Below, piece by piece: positions 32,151 to 54,391 of a stretch of 64,000 nt of DNA. Source of the DNA: Eubacteriales bacterium (lineage in GTDB: Bacteria; Bacillota; Clostridia; Oscillospirales; SIG627); NCBI GenBank assembly GCA_045658765.1, contig JAZOVP010000117.1:35303-99302 (forward strand). The letters run 5' to 3'. The notes beneath the pieces are model-generated. The model was not told where the DNA came from. It made no database searches and saw only the letters and a program-made list of their open reading frames with translations. How positions within the stretch are numbered: position 1 is the stretch's first letter; each line of letters opens with the position of its first letter. The translations under genes were made by a program, and so were the position numbers.

Positions 32151-32166
32151 TCTTGTGCGTGAGATT

Positions 32167-32195
32167 ATCTTATCTGCTTTTTTTATGTTTGTCAA
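32167..32195 (-). promoter_or_regulatory. sigma-A promoter driving the TPP riboswitch and thiT-thiN
   Basis: Minus strand reads TTGACA, 17 nt, TAAGAT. The -35 lies 9 nt from the terL-like ATG on the other strand. Confidence 0.55.
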
Positions 32196-32203
32196 GTGAG
32201 AAA

Positions 32204-33574
32204 ATGAAATCTATTGAAAAATTTTTAAATTCGATTCATCCGTTTCCGCCTCAGGAAGAGTTTTTCCGCGCGAAGGCAAGAAGAATTGCCTATGGCGGGG
32301 CAAGAGGCGGCGGAAAAAGCTTTGCGATGCGAGCAAAGCTTGTGCTTTTGGCGCTTCGCTATCCCGGAATTCAAATTTTGCTTTTAAGAAGAAGCTTTCC
32401 CGAGCTTCGCGAAAATCATATCAATCCGCTTCGAAAATGGCTTTACGGGATTGCCACCTTTCGGGAATCCACAAAGGAATTTTTGTTTGCCTCTGGCTCG
32501 CGCATCAAGCTCGGTTATCTTGCCGAGGAGGGGGATGTGCTTCAATATCAGGGGCAGGCGTATGAAGTGATTGGCATGGAAGAGGCAACGCAGTTCACGG
32601 AAGCGCAGTATTACGCGATGACGGAATGTTGCCGCCTTTCGGGGCAAATGAAAGAAAAATTCACTCCGAGAATGTATTTTACTTGCAATCCCGGCGGGGT
32701 GGGGCATGCTTGGGTGAAGCGCCTTTTTATTGATCGGGATTACCGAGATGGGGAGGCGGCGGAGGATTATGTGTTTATTCCTTCCACGGTATACGACAAT
32801 CGGTATTTGATTCGGGAAAACCCCGAATATGTGCGAAATCTTGAAAGTTTGCCTCCGCTTCGCCGAAAGGCGATGCTGGAGGGGGATTGGGATGTGTTTG
32901 AGGGGCAGTATTTCACGGAATTTGATCGGAAAAAGCACGAAATTAAGCCCTTTGAAATTCCCGATTCCTGGCATCGCTTTGCGGCGATGGATTATGGGCT
33001 TGATATGACCTGCTGCCTTTGGTTTGCCTATCCTCCCGATCGAAGCCGCATTGTGATTTATCGCGAGCTCTATGAACCCTCTCTGGTGCTTTCTGCGGCG
33101 GCGGAGAAGATTTTGAAATTTCAAGGAAAAGAAGAGCTTCGTTATCTTACCGCTTCGCCCGATTTATCGGGAAGAAGGCAGGATGCGGGCAAAACGGGCT
33201 TTGATATTTTGAAAAACTGCGGACTTCGCGGGCTTGTTTCGGCGGATAACGAAAGGATTGCGGGGTGGCGCAGGGTGAGAGAATTCCTTCGAGCCGAAAC
33301 GGAAGAAGGGGCTTATTTGGGGATTTTTCCATCGTGCCGAAATCTGATTCGAACCCTGCCGCGACTCACCTTTGATTCGGTGAAAACAGAAGATGCCGCG
33401 ATTCATCCCCATGAATATACCCATGCTCCCGATGCTTTGCGCTACGGGCTTTCTTCTTTGCCTTTTTTGCCGGGAGAAATCAGGGCGGAAAAGGAGATTG
33501 TGCGCGATATTAAGGCGGAATTTTTTGGGAAGAAGCAGGGGAATCAGAGTTATATCGGCTTTTTGAAAAAATAA
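32204..33574 (+). CDS. phage terminase large subunit-like protein
   Basis: 456 aa. Walker A YGGARGGGKSF, an ATPase core (ILLLRRSFPEL, GMEEATQF), and a C-terminal RNaseH-like nuclease region (AMDYG...HAPDALRYG). No obvious RBS. The tracked start at 32153 lies inside the riboswitch promoter region. Confidence 0.8.
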   Translation: MKSIEKFLNSIHPFPPQEEFFRAKARRIAYGGARGGGKSFAMRAKLVLLALRYPGIQILLLRRSFPELRENHINPLRKWLYGIATFRESTKEFLFASGSRIKLGYLAEEGDVLQYQGQAYEVIGMEEATQFTEAQYYAMTECCRLSGQMKEKFTPRMYFTCNPGGVGHAWVKRLFIDRDYRDGEAAEDYVFIPSTVYDNRYLIRENPEYVRNLESLPPLRRKAMLEGDWDVFEGQYFTEFDRKKHEIKPFEIPDSWHRFAAMDYGLDMTCCLWFAYPPDRSRIVIYRELYEPSLVLSAAAEKILKFQGKEELRYLTASPDLSGRRQDAGKTGFDILKNCGLRGLVSADNERIAGWRRVREFLRAETEEGAYLGIFPSCRNLIRTLPRLTFDSVKTEDAAIHPHEYTHAPDALRYGLSSLPFLPGEIRAEKEIVRDIKAEFFGKKQGNQSYIGFLKK

Positions 33575-33603
33575 TTGACTCCGCACTTTTTCTTTGCTAC
33601 AAT
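33575..33603 (+). promoter_or_regulatory. sigma-A promoter for the QueG-like gene
   Basis: TTGACT, 17 nt, TACAAT. It begins immediately after the terL-like stop codon. Confidence 0.55.
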
Positions 33604-33619
33604 CTTTGCGGAGGATCTT

Positions 33620-34414
33620 ATGCTCAAAGAATTTTTTGAAAGAGAAAACATTGAATTTTATTCCACGCTGAAGGCGAAGGATCTTGTGATTTGGGACAAG
33701 GCAAAAATGGCTCGGGTGGAAGAAGAGATCGGCGAGGTGAAATGCGCGGTGATCTTTTTGATTCCGTATTTTGCGGGTCAGAAAACCACCAATCTTTCGA
33801 TTTATGCCCAGCCGAGGGATTATCACTATTTTCTTTTGCTTTTATCGGAGCGTTTTGAGGAATACCGAAACAAAAAGGGGCTTTCTTTTTCGTTTCGTGG
33901 ATTTGCCGATTCCTCGCCGCTTGCCGAGCGCGATGCCGCGCTGAAGGCGGGGCTTGGTGTTTTGGGGAAAAATGGGCTGATTTTAAATGAAAAATACGGC
34001 TCGTTTGTGTTTATCGGCGCATTCTTTTTGAATGAAGAATTGCCCGCAGAGCAGATTTTGGAAAAAATGAATTGCCCCGCTTGCGGGGAGTGCGAAAAGG
34101 CGTGCCCCACGGGAGCGATTTTTGATCCCGAGAGGAAAACATGCCTATCGCTTATTTCGCAAAAGAAAAATCGCTCGCCCGAGGAAGATGTGCTTTTGGA
34201 AAAAGCCGAATGTAAATGGGGATGCGATTTATGCCAAAATGTTTGCCCGATGAATCGATTTGCCGAGAAAACCCCGATTCCCTTCTTTTTGGAGGATCAT
34301 ATCATAGAGCTTTCGGAGGATGTGATCGGAATGGAAAAAGAAGAATTTAAAAAACGCGCCTTTTCCTGGCGAGGCAAGGCCATTTTAAAGAGAAACCTTG
34401 CAATAGAAGAATAA
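33620..34414 (+). CDS. epoxyqueuosine reductase (QueG)-family 4Fe-4S protein, short form
   Basis: 264 aa. CPACGECEKACPTGAI and CDLCQNVCPMN ferredoxin motifs. The N-terminal region is DUF1730-like. Confidence 0.6.
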   Translation: MLKEFFERENIEFYSTLKAKDLVIWDKAKMARVEEEIGEVKCAVIFLIPYFAGQKTTNLSIYAQPRDYHYFLLLLSERFEEYRNKKGLSFSFRGFADSSPLAERDAALKAGLGVLGKNGLILNEKYGSFVFIGAFFLNEELPAEQILEKMNCPACGECEKACPTGAIFDPERKTCLSLISQKKNRSPEEDVLLEKAECKWGCDLCQNVCPMNRFAEKTPIPFFLEDHIIELSEDVIGMEKEEFKKRAFSWRGKAILKRNLAIEE

Positions 34415-34416
34415 GA

Positions 34417-34445
34417 AAGAACACCCAAGAGGGTGTTCTTTTTTT
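34417..34445. terminator. bidirectional terminator, copy 1 of a thrice-repeated hairpin
   Basis: aagaacaccc-aaga-gggtgttctt followed by a T-run. Confidence 0.85.
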
Positions 34446-34447
34446 GA

Positions 34448-34681
34448 TCAATCTTTTATTTTTTTCAAGCAAGCGGGGCATAGCAGAAGATCGCTTTTCT
34501 GAATCAGATCGCCATCTTTTCCGCAAATGCAGCAAACGGACTTTTCCTTTTGCAAAATGATTTCTTGATTTTCAGGATCAAGTTTCATTAAAACGGAAGA
34601 ATTTGGGGATAAATGAAGCTGATCTCTGATATTTTTGGGAATCACAATTCTTCCCAAGGGGTCAATTTGTTTTATTGTCAT
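34448..34681 (-). CDS. AbrB/MazE/SpoVT-type DNA-binding protein with a C-terminal CxxC..CxxC zinc ribbon (copy 1)
   Basis: 77 aa, MTIKQIDPLGRIVIPKNIRDQL...CCICGKDGDLI...CPACLKKI. GAGGTG RBS before the ATG at 34681. Confidence 0.8.
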   Translation of the reverse strand: MTIKQIDPLGRIVIPKNIRDQLHLSPNSSVLMKLDPENQEIILQKEKSVCCICGKDGDLIQKSDLLLCPACLKKIKD

Positions 34682-34771
34682 AAAATCACCTCGGTTTATT
34701 TTACTACGATTTGATAGTAAAATCAATACTATTATTTGATAGTACATATACTTAACATTGAGGTGAGAGAT

Positions 34772-34990
34772 ATGTATTATCCACGATTAAAAGATTTGCG
34801 TGAAGATCGCGATTTGGTTCAAAAAGAAGTTGCGGCATTTCTTGGGATTGATCAAAGAGTATATAGCAATTATGAAACCGGCAAAAGAGATATTCCCACG
34901 CGTTTTGTGGTTTTGCTCGCAAAATATTATAACACTTCCGCTGATTATATACTGGGTTTAACCAATGAACCTAATTTTGGTAAAAAATAA
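34772..34990 (+). CDS. XRE-family helix-turn-helix regulator
   Basis: 72 aa. LVQKEVAAFLGIDQRVYSNYETGKRDIP is a classic Cro/CI HTH. GAGGTGAG RBS. Confidence 0.8.
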   Translation: MYYPRLKDLREDRDLVQKEVAAFLGIDQRVYSNYETGKRDIPTRFVVLLAKYYNTSADYILGLTNEPNFGKK

Positions 34991-35004
34991 ACTAAAAAAT
35001 AAAA

Positions 35005-35033
35005 AAGAACACCCGAGAGGGTGTTCTTTTTTT
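35005..35033. terminator. bidirectional terminator, copy 2 of the repeated hairpin
   Basis: aagaacaccc-gaga-gggtgttctt followed by a T-run. Confidence 0.85.
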
Positions 35034-35035
35034 GA

Positions 35036-35266
35036 TCAATCTTTTATTTTTTTCAAGCAAGCGGGGCATACCAGAAGATCGCTTTTTTGAATCAGATCGC
35101 TATCTTTTCCGCAAATGCAGCAAACCGGCTCTTCTTTTTTCAATATGATTTCTTGATTTTCAGGATCAATCTTGATGAAAAGGGCAGAGTTTGGGAATAA
35201 ATGAAGCTCTTCTCTGATATTTTTGGGAATCACAATTCTTCCCAAGGGGTCTATTTTTCTGATCAT
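35036..35266 (-). CDS. AbrB/MazE/SpoVT-type DNA-binding protein with a C-terminal zinc ribbon (copy 2)
   Basis: 76 aa, MIRKIDPLGRIVIPKNIREEL...CCICGKDSDLI...CPACLKKIKD. About 80% identical by eye to copy 1. Confidence 0.8.
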   Translation of the reverse strand: MIRKIDPLGRIVIPKNIREELHLFPNSALFIKIDPENQEIILKKEEPVCCICGKDSDLIQKSDLLVCPACLKKIKD

Positions 35267-35334
35267 AATGGAATTTCCTTTTTTTATTGAATTTTCGTTT
35301 GGCGCTTTCCGAGGTGCCAAAAAGAATCTAACTA

Positions 35335-35379
35335 TATGGGGGTTATATCCCCTTAATATTCGAGATTATAACCCCCATA
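35335..35379. promoter_or_regulatory. perfect 13-bp inverted repeat (candidate operator) in a divergent promoter region
   Basis: TATGGGGGTTATA (35335-35347), 19 nt, TATAACCCCCATA (35367-35379). Confidence 0.6.
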
Positions 35380-35404
35380 ATAATAAATGTCAAGGGGGAT
35401 GATT

Positions 35405-35608
35405 ATGATTGTATTTGACCGACTTTGGAACACGATGAAGGAAAAAGGTTTTTCCACGTATCAATTAAGAGAGCGTTGTGGAATCGACAGCAAAACGATC
35501 CGAAGATTAAAAGCGAACGAAAATATCGAAACAAAAACGATTGATAAGATTTGTTTGGCATTGAAATGTCGCATCGAGGATGTGGCGGAATATATTGAGG
35601 ATCGATAA
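35405..35608 (+). CDS. XRE-family helix-turn-helix regulator (different subfamily from 34772)
   Basis: 67 aa, MIVFDRLWNTMKEKGFSTYQLRERCGIDSKTIRRLK. AGGGGGA RBS before the ATG at 35405. Confidence 0.75.
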   Translation: MIVFDRLWNTMKEKGFSTYQLRERCGIDSKTIRRLKANENIETKTIDKICLALKCRIEDVAEYIEDR

Positions 35609-35615
35609 ATAAAAA

Positions 35616-35645
35616 AAGAACACCCAAAAAGGGTGTTCTTTTTTG
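35616..35645. terminator. bidirectional terminator, copy 3 of the repeated hairpin
   Basis: aagaacaccc-aaaaa-gggtgttctt followed by a T-run. It also closes the convergent GGGtGRT operon. Confidence 0.85.
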
Positions 35646-53178: not shown

Positions 53179-53207
53179 TTGATTTTTTCTTTGCTCGGTG
53201 CTATAAT
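53179..53207 (+). promoter_or_regulatory. sigma-A promoter
   Basis: TTGATT, 17 nt, TATAAT. Lies 69 nt upstream of the kinase gene. Confidence 0.55.
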
Positions 53208-53275
53208 ATCTTTTAATAGTATCAGCATGAGTTTTTCGCCCGTTGGGGTATCAAAATAAAAAAAGGAAATGGATT

Positions 53276-54391
53276 ATGAGTTATCAAAATCGAACCATTG
53301 TTTCTGTTTTGAAGAAATTTGGAATTTCGTTTGATTCTTTCCGTGTGCAAACCTTTCACAGCGGCCACATCAATTCCACGCATAAAGTGGATATTCGCTT
53401 CCAAGGCAAGAGCGATAGCTTTGTGCTTCAGAGAATCAATACCTTTGTGTTTTCCAATCCCATCGGAATTATGGAAAATATTGATAAAGTTACAAAGCAC
53501 ATCCGCAATAAACTCATCTCGGAAGGAACCGATCCAAACGGAAGAGTGCTCGACTTTTTGAAAAATGCCGAGGGAGTCAATTACTACTTCGAAGATAAAG
53601 AAAATTTCTGGCGCGTGTATCGCTATATTGATAATTCCATCACCTACGATCAGGCGGAAGATCCTGCGGTTTTGCGCAATGCGGGATATGCTTTTGGCCT
53701 TTTCCAGAAGCAGCTTTGCGATTTCCCGATGGAAGAGCTTCAGGATACCTTGCCCGATTTTCACAACACCCCCAAAAGAATGGAAAATCTTTTTGCCGCT
53801 CAAGAGCGCGATGCGGCGGGAAGAAGATGCGAGATTGAAGAAGATATTCAAATCTTAAAAGAGCATCGCGAAATTTGGTCGAAGCTTGAAAACGATCGCG
53901 CGGCAGGGCTTTTGCCCGTGCGCGTTACCCATAACGACACCAAGTATAATAATATTTTGATCGATAAAGATAGCGGCGAAGCGGTTTGTGTGATCGATCT
54001 GGACACGGTAACCCCCGGTTTGTGCGCTTATGATTTTGGAGATGCGATTCGTTTTTCCGCCAACACGGCCGCGGAAGACGAGGCAGATACCTCGAAGGTT
54101 TCTTTGGATCTTGGGCTTTATGAAGCGTTTGCTTCGGGATTTATTTCGGTTTGCAAAGAATTTTGCACCAAAGAGGAGCTCGAGAGTTTGGCGCTCGGCG
54201 CGATCACGATGACTTTTGAACTTGCCGCAAGATTTTTTGAGGACTATTTAAACGGGGATCAATATTTTAAGGTTCACCATCCGAAGCACAATTTGGAACG
54301 CGCCAGAAGCCAGCTTGCGCTTGCTTTGGATATGAAAGAGAAATTTGACCGTATGCAAGAAATCAACCGCCGTTATGCGCAGATCAAATAA
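53276..54391 (+). CDS. aminoglycoside-phosphotransferase-fold sugar kinase (N-acetylhexosamine 1-kinase/NahK-like)
   Basis: 371 aa. F.SGHINSTHKV, VTHNDTKYNNILID (catalytic loop) and VIDLDTV. The resemblance to NahK is from memory. Confidence 0.6.
   Translation: MSYQNRTIVSVLKKFGISFDSFRVQTFHSGHINSTHKVDIRFQGKSDSFVLQRINTFVFSNPIGIMENIDKVTKHIRNKLISEGTDPNGRVLDFLKNAEGVNYYFEDKENFWRVYRYIDNSITYDQAEDPAVLRNAGYAFGLFQKQLCDFPMEELQDTLPDFHNTPKRMENLFAAQERDAAGRRCEIEEDIQILKEHREIWSKLENDRAAGLLPVRVTHNDTKYNNILIDKDSGEAVCVIDLDTVTPGLCAYDFGDAIRFSANTAAEDEADTSKVSLDLGLYEAFASGFISVCKEFCTKEELESLALGAITMTFELAARFFEDYLNGDQYFKVHHPKHNLERARSQLALALDMKEKFDRMQEINRRYAQIK

Follow-up and report, generated by a model that had tools for sequence, protein, structure and literature searches.

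Tandem divergent AbrB-like/XRE regulator cassettes in an Eubacteriales genome, the second an apparent chimera

AbrB is a central transition-state and sporulation regulator of Firmicutes. Here we report that a 64-kb stretch of DNA from an Eubacteriales bacterium, a member of the Clostridia from gut or rumen (contig JAZOVP010000117.1, positions 35,303 to 99,302; hereafter the window, with coordinates counted from its first nucleotide) carries two tandem cassettes, each of which joins the gene for a small AbrB-like protein with a Cys4 tail (abrB-Zn) to a divergently transcribed gene for a small XRE-family regulator. The first pairing, abrB-Zn1 with XRE1, is conserved in relatives together with its operators, and the second, abrB-Zn2 with XRE2, appears from its sequence to have been assembled from parts of two different modules. 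The overall explanation that we favour, with moderate confidence, is that these are two terminator-insulated two-regulator cassettes in which an XRE protein would gate an AbrB-like effector, cassette 2 being secondary to cassette 1. The components all belong to well-known families; the cassette type and its rewiring are what is new, and searches of the literature for a divergent AbrB-like (AbrB-paralogue)/XRE pair or module found no description of one.

From left to right the locus reads hairpin, abrB-Zn1 and XRE1, hairpin, abrB-Zn2 and XRE2, hairpin, as the first-pass annotation of this DNA had described it. The stem pattern AAGAACACCC-N4/5-GGGTGTTCTT occurs in exactly three copies in the window, at 34417, 35005 and 35616, the very positions reported in that annotation. 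The abrB-Zn1 gene (34448-34681, minus strand) encodes 77 residues and is the ancestral-like copy, while abrB-Zn2 (35036-35266, minus strand; 76 residues) is a derived paralogous copy lying downstream of the leftward promoter of an XRE2-family control region. XRE1 (34772-34990, plus strand) encodes a 72-residue single-domain HTH_3 regulator (PF01381, 48.1 bits against a cut-off of 23), and XRE2 (35405-35608, plus strand) a 67-residue HTH_26 protein (PF13443, 63.3 bits against a cut-off of 22); both thus pass the domain cut-offs of the XRE family. No BLASTP alignment was obtained between XRE1 and XRE2, and the two intergenic regions are likewise unrelated, in agreement with what had been read from the letters alone.

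All three hairpins have folding energies between -17 and -20 kcal/mol, whichever strand is folded (z -4.4 to -6.2 against shuffled sequences) and are flanked on both sides by A/T runs that place a T-run on both strands. Because of these strong folds on both strands and the T-runs on both sides, we identify the hairpins, with their GC-rich stems, as bidirectional, Rho-independent intrinsic terminators. Hairpin 1 (34417-34440; -19.2 kcal/mol on one strand and -17.3 on the other; found by pattern match and by terminator scan) would be shared by a QueG-like gene (plus) and abrB-Zn1 (minus). Hairpin 2 (35005-35028), which falls within the duplicated unit described below, would end XRE1 (plus) and abrB-Zn2 (minus), and hairpin 3 (35616-35640) would end XRE2 (plus) and a convergent GGGtGRT gene (minus).

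The N-terminal 45 residues of the AbrB-Zn proteins match AbrB/MazE/SpoVT models. AbrB-Zn1 and AbrB-Zn2 score 35.3 and 32.4 bits with PF04014 (cut-off 24.7) and 37.6 and 38.0 bits with TIGR01439 (cut-off 28.3), and the solved N-domains of SpoVT, AbrB and Abh are matched at E = 1e-14 to 1e-10. An AlphaFold (AF2) model of AbrB-Zn1, with a predicted local distance difference test score (pLDDT) of 85, matched 2w1t, 1yfb and 1z0r in Foldseek with root-mean-square deviations of 1.7-1.9 A over 46-47 residues and a probability of 1.00. Sequence and predicted structure together confirm the assignment of a swapped-hairpin N-domain of the AbrB/SpoVT type, the DNA-binding domain also found in AbrB, Abh and SpoVT of Bacillus subtilis. 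The tail has the form CxxC-N14-CxxC, its cysteines (C50, C53, C68 and C71) do not vary among the 32 homologues that were aligned, and it weakly resembles the zinc ribbon of uS14; we suggest that it binds zinc. The C-domain of B. subtilis AbrB is without the Cys4 motif (PMC9598496). In length and in the CxxC...CxxC tail the window proteins resemble clostridial AbrB, the transition-state regulator of ~80 residues found for example in Clostridium tyrobutyricum and C. acetobutylicum. The combination of AbrB domain and zinc-ribbon tail is not an odd fusion: because a subfamily profile retrieves more than 7000 proteins of ~80 residues with the identical Cys4 tail layout, several of them named at source "pleiotropic regulator of transition state genes", it is the ordinary clostridial AbrB architecture.

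Within this architecture the window proteins belong to a divergent clade, here called short-N. They begin MTIKQID and MIRKID and are without the canonical MKSTG, carry a two-residue insertion after the second strand, have CxIC rather than CxFC, and place D or E at the position equivalent to R24 of AbrB. They share only 29-47% identity with canonical AbrB, and the same range applies to the other AbrB-Zn proteins of the alignment; the features of a canonical AbrB orthologue (an MKSTG-IVR N-terminus, a KKY-x-P-x-C-x-F-C junction and a stand-alone gene) were not found in them. The close clade is small: a search made exhaustively over 1.84 billion representatives placed it in a single 50%-identity cluster, with only 16 representatives at E <= 1e-10. 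A genome-contig scan with AbrB-Zn1 returned matches to the N-domain only (Saccharibacteria, Methanospirillum) and no close relatives. Viral and metagenome contig scans with the subfamily alignment returned only canonical AbrBs, at <=43% identity over near-full length, the values of 61-68% in those scans being from N-terminal segments of 22-26 residues. An exact-sequence look-up of the window protein gave no record.

The pairing of AbrB-Zn with an XRE regulator is a genuine conserved unit and is specific to the short-N clade. In 6/6 short-N loci with usable flanks (cassette 1 of the window, L005/L006, L009, L010, L141/L142 and L149) the gene stands beside a divergent small XRE gene or, in L010, beside the operator only. 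Canonical abrB genes, in contrast, are not arranged in this way: among the fetched viral and metagenomic loci, 1/88 genes of canonical AbrB size has an XRE-like open reading frame (ORF) within 400 bp. The chance adjacency that the first-pass annotation had allowed for is not what these loci display. The close relatives of the window proteins (P0004, 61% identical; P0003/P0006, 65-70%) are each encoded divergently beside an XRE1 orthologue of 71-72 residues, and the XRE1 orthologues in L005, L009 and L140 are 78-93% identical to the window protein. Cassette 1 itself is rare but conserved, occurring in at least three other chromosomal contexts: it follows an SDR gene in L005/L006 and nadE in L009, and the partial contig L010 carries its operator. 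More distant short-N members (P0088 and P0097, 42-45% identical) have as divergent partner a third, unrelated small protein of HTH_26 type, and an intergenic motif is conserved between their two loci. At least three mutually unrelated types of XRE protein are therefore seen with short-N AbrB-Zn.

The control region of cassette 1 is more strongly conserved than the AbrB-Zn proteins. The leftward abrB-Zn1 promoter (34726-34698, minus strand; TTGATT-17-TAAAAT, from a promoter scan) and a proposed rightward XRE1 promoter (plus strand; TCAATA-18-TATACT, read by eye from the sequence) stand back to back with overlapping -35 elements, and the spacer of each contains one copy of an 18-bp palindrome of the type TACTAYnnnnnnRTAGTA, here TACTAT-N6-ATAGTA. 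These candidate operators lie at 34702-34719 (O1-left, in the abrB-Zn1 promoter) and 34727-34744 (O1-right, in the XRE1 promoter), 25 bp apart. A search of the window with the palindrome pattern returned 6 strand-wise matches, which fall at 3 sites, where chance alone would predict 0.06. Both palindromes are conserved in L005, L009 and L010, and the intergenic DNA as a whole is nearly invariant among the window and these three loci, the AbrB-Zn proteins being only 60-70% identical. All XRE1 orthologues share one unchanged stretch, IDQRVYSNYETGKR, in which we place the recognition helix. Dimers of helix-turn-helix (HTH) proteins typically have palindromic half-sites of this sort; since the half-sites and IDQRVYSNYETGKR are invariant together, we infer that XRE1 binds both palindromes.

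The third site, TAATATCTTTTAATAGTA at 53204-53221, is an operator-like palindrome with one mismatch. It overlaps the -10 element (TATAAT) of a TTGATT-17-TATAAT promoter upstream of an ORF of 382 residues (53243-54391). The site could be a trans target of the regulator of cassette 1, or it could have arisen by chance, the promoter being AT-rich.

Cassette 2 has a different origin. XRE2 belongs to a large family (4679 matches at E<=1e-5, the best 120 of the 4679 being 76-91% identical), and its control region (35333-35398) consists of a 13-nt inverted repeat (TATGGGGGTTATA at 35335-35347 and TATAACCCCCATA at 35367-35379) with interdigitated divergent promoters. The leftward one, facing abrB-Zn2, has perfect consensus elements (35393-35365, minus strand; TTGACA-17-TATAAT, from the promoter scan), and the rightward one (35353-35381, plus strand; TTAATA-17-CATAAT) faces XRE2. 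L129, L135, L139 and L140 all retain the control block, with its leftward promoter directed at a YAcAr gene. A YAcAr/SLOG gene of ~120 residues (PF10686) is the divergent partner of the XRE2-family gene in three contexts besides the window (L129-L134, L135-L138 and L140). Homology between the window and these XRE2 loci begins exactly at 35333. Between this point and abrB-Zn2 lies a leader of ~66 nt (35267-35332, minus strand), for which blastn gave no significant match in any locus or elsewhere in the window.

Synteny between the relative L140 and the window extends for 3.5 kb, with 70% of nucleotides identical, and takes in a gene for a ThiT/YuaJ-type thiamine transporter, the terminase-like and QueG-like genes, and the hairpin right after the latter. 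Beyond this hairpin L140 continues with YAcAr, the XRE2 control block, XRE2 and, directly downstream, an XRE1 orthologue. The YAcAr slot of L140 is thus occupied in the window by abrB-Zn1, XRE1 and abrB-Zn2, and the order XRE2 then XRE1 stands against XRE1 then XRE2 in the window. In L139 an XRE2 homologue, 91% identical, is followed by a hairpin of the same stem. On the strength of L139, L140 and the YAcAr-paired loci, we regard XRE2, its operator and the hairpins as resident features of the lineage. Judged from these alignments, cassette 2 is a chimera in which a copy of abrB-Zn sits in the slot normally held by the YAcAr/SLOG gene: compared with the HTH_26/YAcAr pair that is widespread in Clostridia, its XRE2 gene (82-91% identical) and its entire control block are retained, but its leftward gene is abrB-Zn2. 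Neither a YAcAr remnant nor a canonical abrB was found in the window. The XRE2/abrB-Zn pairing was seen only in the window, all other XRE2-family contexts examined carrying YAcAr. The earlier idea of two sister cassettes with swapped HTH partners was therefore right in that the partners differ and mistaken about the kinship of the cassettes.

The HTH_26/YAcAr module is in itself very widespread and very conserved. In L129 (3552-4204), L135 (3547-4216) and L140 (3548-4201) an HTH_26 protein of 66-71 residues, with more than 4600 relatives, is encoded divergently to a YAcAr/SLOG protein of ~120 residues. The inverted repeat of its operator is almost invariant and the SLOG-facing promoter is of perfect or near-perfect consensus, and the neighbours of the module vary (a barnase-barstar pair, an IS200-like ORF).

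The two abrB-Zn genes are parts of a direct repeat that comprises an A-tract, the hairpin and the abrB-Zn coding sequence (copy 1, 34407-34700; copy 2, 34995-35288). The repeat is 294 nt long, 88% identical and offset by 588 nt; 36/294 positions differ, the exact shared runs reach ~55 nt, and identity drops to background at the abrB-Zn start codon. The encoded proteins are 80% identical, as the first-pass annotation had stated along with their lengths, and retain all four cysteines. When the amino-acid differences were polarised with outgroups, 13/16 fell on the Zn2 branch and 2 on the Zn1 branch, and Zn2 is for this reason the derived copy. The changes on its branch are concentrated in residues 20-34, within the DNA-binding domain. 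The derived copy is probably functional, to judge from its intact ORF, the retained GRIVIPK core, a Zn1/Zn2 ratio of nonsynonymous to synonymous divergence (dN/dS) of 0.43 and the 95% of aligned positions that are conservative.

The first 118 nt counted from the hairpin contain the four mismatches that had been counted by eye (96.6% identity), against 84.4% identity in the remaining gene (Fisher p = 9e-4, with the 118-nt boundary picked post hoc, after inspection of the data), and formal alignment thus finds the 3' end more identical than the rest. The excess is genuine but coincides with the conserved zinc tail. Synonymous divergence is 0.12 in the C-terminal part and 0.27 in the N-terminal part, on few sites, and with so few synonymous differences gene conversion is inseparable from purifying selection; of the "duplicated or gene-converted" gene proposed earlier, it is the duplication that stands. 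Identity between the copies is likewise 97% in the non-coding hairpin and spacer, as would be expected if the copy were recent or if the terminator were under selection.

The duplicated unit (34407-34691 and 34995-35276) extends from about the ribosome-binding site (RBS) and start codon of abrB-Zn1 to ~10 nt past the hairpin, and so corresponds roughly to the predicted abrB-Zn1 transcript from its start to the point of terminator release. This may be a coincidence or a hint of the mechanism; because the boundaries of the unit coincide with those of the predicted transcript, an RNA-mediated copy is possible.

Based on these observations, we propose that cassette 1 is a portable conserved module in which a short-N AbrB paralogue and a 72-residue XRE protein would be expressed from back-to-back promoters, each with an 18-bp palindrome in its spacer. 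A dimer of XRE1 would occupy both palindromes and so repress its own gene as well as abrB-Zn1. The AbrB paralogue would be the gated output of this switch, acting on other promoters or on canonical AbrB; such an output would have to act in trans, because each cassette is terminator-insulated and encodes regulators only. The effector may bind DNA in the manner of AbrB, and either copy may join the other, or canonical AbrB, in mixed oligomers. Paralogues of AbrB are able to function as homomers and/or heteromers, as reported for AbrB and Abh of B. subtilis (PMC3025583). At some point a promoterless unit of ~280 bp (A-tract, hairpin and abrB-Zn coding sequence) would have been duplicated, and the copy inserted downstream of a strong leftward promoter governed by the resident XRE2-family regulator, where it would have replaced the YAcAr/SLOG gene. 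The Zn2 copy would then have diverged, chiefly in its DNA-binding domain. The net result would be one type of AbrB-like effector wired to two unrelated gates, XRE1 and XRE2.

Several points weigh against this proposal. The palindromes could be bound by AbrB-Zn rather than by XRE1. In L140, XRE1 comes immediately after XRE2, and the contig shows no abrB-Zn gene and no copy of the palindromes, although it ends 60 nt past XRE1; XRE1 can thus exist outside the module. The comparison with relatives draws on short metagenomic contigs, and the clade is represented by only about five independent loci. These loci are compatible with more than one order of events and more than one origin of the third identical hairpin. 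The abrB-Zn2 gene has a weaker RBS, a leader of ~90 nt without detectable origin and a faster evolution, features that could mean relaxed constraint. The source of the window, moreover, appears to be metagenome-assembled, the cluster mates of its GGGtGRT protein being proteins of metagenome-assembled genomes.

Of the alternatives, the one that survives best, though we still judge it unlikely, is that abrB-Zn2 is a non-functional by-product of local duplication, the biology of the locus depending on cassette 1 and the XRE2 gene alone. The excess of substitutions on the Zn2 branch (13/16), the weaker RBS, the leader of undetected origin and a pairing seen nowhere else, with YAcAr in the other XRE2-family contexts examined, are all consistent with such a dead duplicate. 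They have to be set against an intact ORF that keeps every cysteine and the GRIVIPK core, the dN/dS of 0.43 with its preponderance of conservative positions (95%), and the placement of the gene between a perfect-consensus promoter in front and a strong terminator at its end. We therefore prefer to see abrB-Zn2 as a rewired rather than a decaying gene.

The first-pass annotation had suggested a switch of the phage or satellite immunity type beside an orphan terminase locus. In switches of the lambda CI/Cro type, two small DNA-binding proteins are encoded divergently from overlapping or back-to-back promoters that contain palindromic operators, and the cassettes share this plan. XRE1 has relatives, 50-58% identical, with phage-repressor annotations, the match of AbrB-Zn to phrog_4681 is full-length, genes of AbrB-Zn type are present in IMG/VR contigs, a terminase-like gene lies 0.9 kb away, and the 1.2-kb block is a low-GC island (32-37%, compared with ~45-54% in the flanks). 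Against this reading, both genes of each pair stop at terminators, which leaves no lytic or lysogenic genes downstream; one partner has an AbrB fold instead of an HTH; and the integrase, att site and replication, lysis and structural genes of a prophage or satellite are absent, the neighbours being of housekeeping type (YuaJ, terminase-like/QueG-like, GGGtGRT, NifU-like and PduL). Elsewhere cassette 1 follows SDR, nadE and other chromosomal genes, whereas in phages the AbrB-Zn genes run in the same direction as the genes around them and lack a divergent XRE gene, and the viral scan gave no close relative.

The terminase-like gene does not alter this picture. It encodes a terminase-large-subunit-like protein (PF04466/PF03237) and abuts the gene for a QueG-like Fe-S protein, whose start codon directly follows the terminase stop (32153-34414 in the window). 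The same order is conserved beside the YuaJ thiamine transporter gene in L140 (1229-3442, in DNA 70% identical), and the gene looks like part of a conserved chromosomal pair, not a prophage remnant. Its proximity was correctly noted; its orphan phage character does not agree with the synteny, and no other phage gene was found at the locus. An immunity remnant tied to this gene is accordingly improbable in our view, well behind the dead duplicate.

Still less credible is an assembly chimera, in which two strain variants would have been joined at the shared hairpin/abrB-Zn repeat. A metagenomic source and exact runs of up to ~55 nt within the repeat are what would allow such a join, but the copies are not collapsed repeats, since they differ at 36/294 positions; both flanks are colinear with L140; XRE2 and its hairpin occur independently in L139; and the shared runs are shorter than the final k-mers typically used in assembly.

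Equally implausible are toxin-antitoxin-like pairs, whether as orphan antitoxins or with one toxic small protein: the Pfam name of the N-domain is MazE_antitoxin (PF04014, with a shared fold superfamily), the PHROG family is labelled antitoxin and XRE1 weakly matches PezA, MqsA and HipB-like antitoxin models, but these XRE1 matches and the NCBIfam antitoxin scores fall far below cut-offs, an ORF of toxin size is absent both within the cassettes and next to them, no further ORF lies between the terminators, the genes are divergent rather than co-transcribed in an operon, the best sequence and fold matches are AbrB/SpoVT/Abh and not MazE, and the PADLOC defence models gave nothing for AbrB-Zn and only weak generic HTH matches for the XREs. 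The antitoxin-like reading offered earlier consequently finds no support.

If the gated-effector proposal is correct, a distinct AbrB paralogue clade invariably accompanied by a dedicated XRE gate would represent an additional level of regulation undescribed in Clostridia, and the locus may be viewed as a natural case of regulatory rewiring, in which an effector gene has been put under the promoter of another repressor. Relatives preserve the donor cassette as well as the arrangement that preceded the rewiring, which makes this a tractable case for studying the evolution of small circuits. Compact (~0.6 kb), terminator-insulated and equipped with defined operators, the cassettes could also serve as synthetic-biology parts for anaerobes. 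More speculatively, short-N Cys4-tailed AbrB paralogues with small XRE proteins may constitute an undescribed family of portable, terminator-insulated toggle cassettes whose XRE partner and operator are exchangeable by recombination at gene boundaries; the window would then be a snapshot of rewiring in progress, possibly by way of an RNA-mediated copy, and the Cys4 tail could be a redox or zinc sensor in strict anaerobes. We offer this wider idea tentatively, and hold it to be clearly less probable than the explanation of the locus itself.

The hairpin is not a wider repeat in the window, where it is confined to its three copies, and viral contigs gave 6 sporadic matches to its pattern; Rfam gave sub-threshold matches only, driven by the terminators, with none at the gathering score. 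With its flanks (34995-35034) it is 100% identical over 40 nt to L140 3435-3474, in genomes that are otherwise ~70% identical at the locus, and in this lineage the terminator sequence would seem to be either exceptionally well conserved or spreading by copying.

Other arrangements of AbrB-Zn were also encountered. Phage AbrB-Zn genes generally lie among early genes, and in the IMG/VR contig L012 (2517-3249) two of them stand in tandem and co-directional. Many proteins of 132-140 residues (P0008, P0012, P0014, P0029 and P0031 among them) have a tandem pair of AbrB N-domains ahead of one Cys4 tail, a domain order that suggests a "dimer" of clostridial AbrB joined covalently in one chain.

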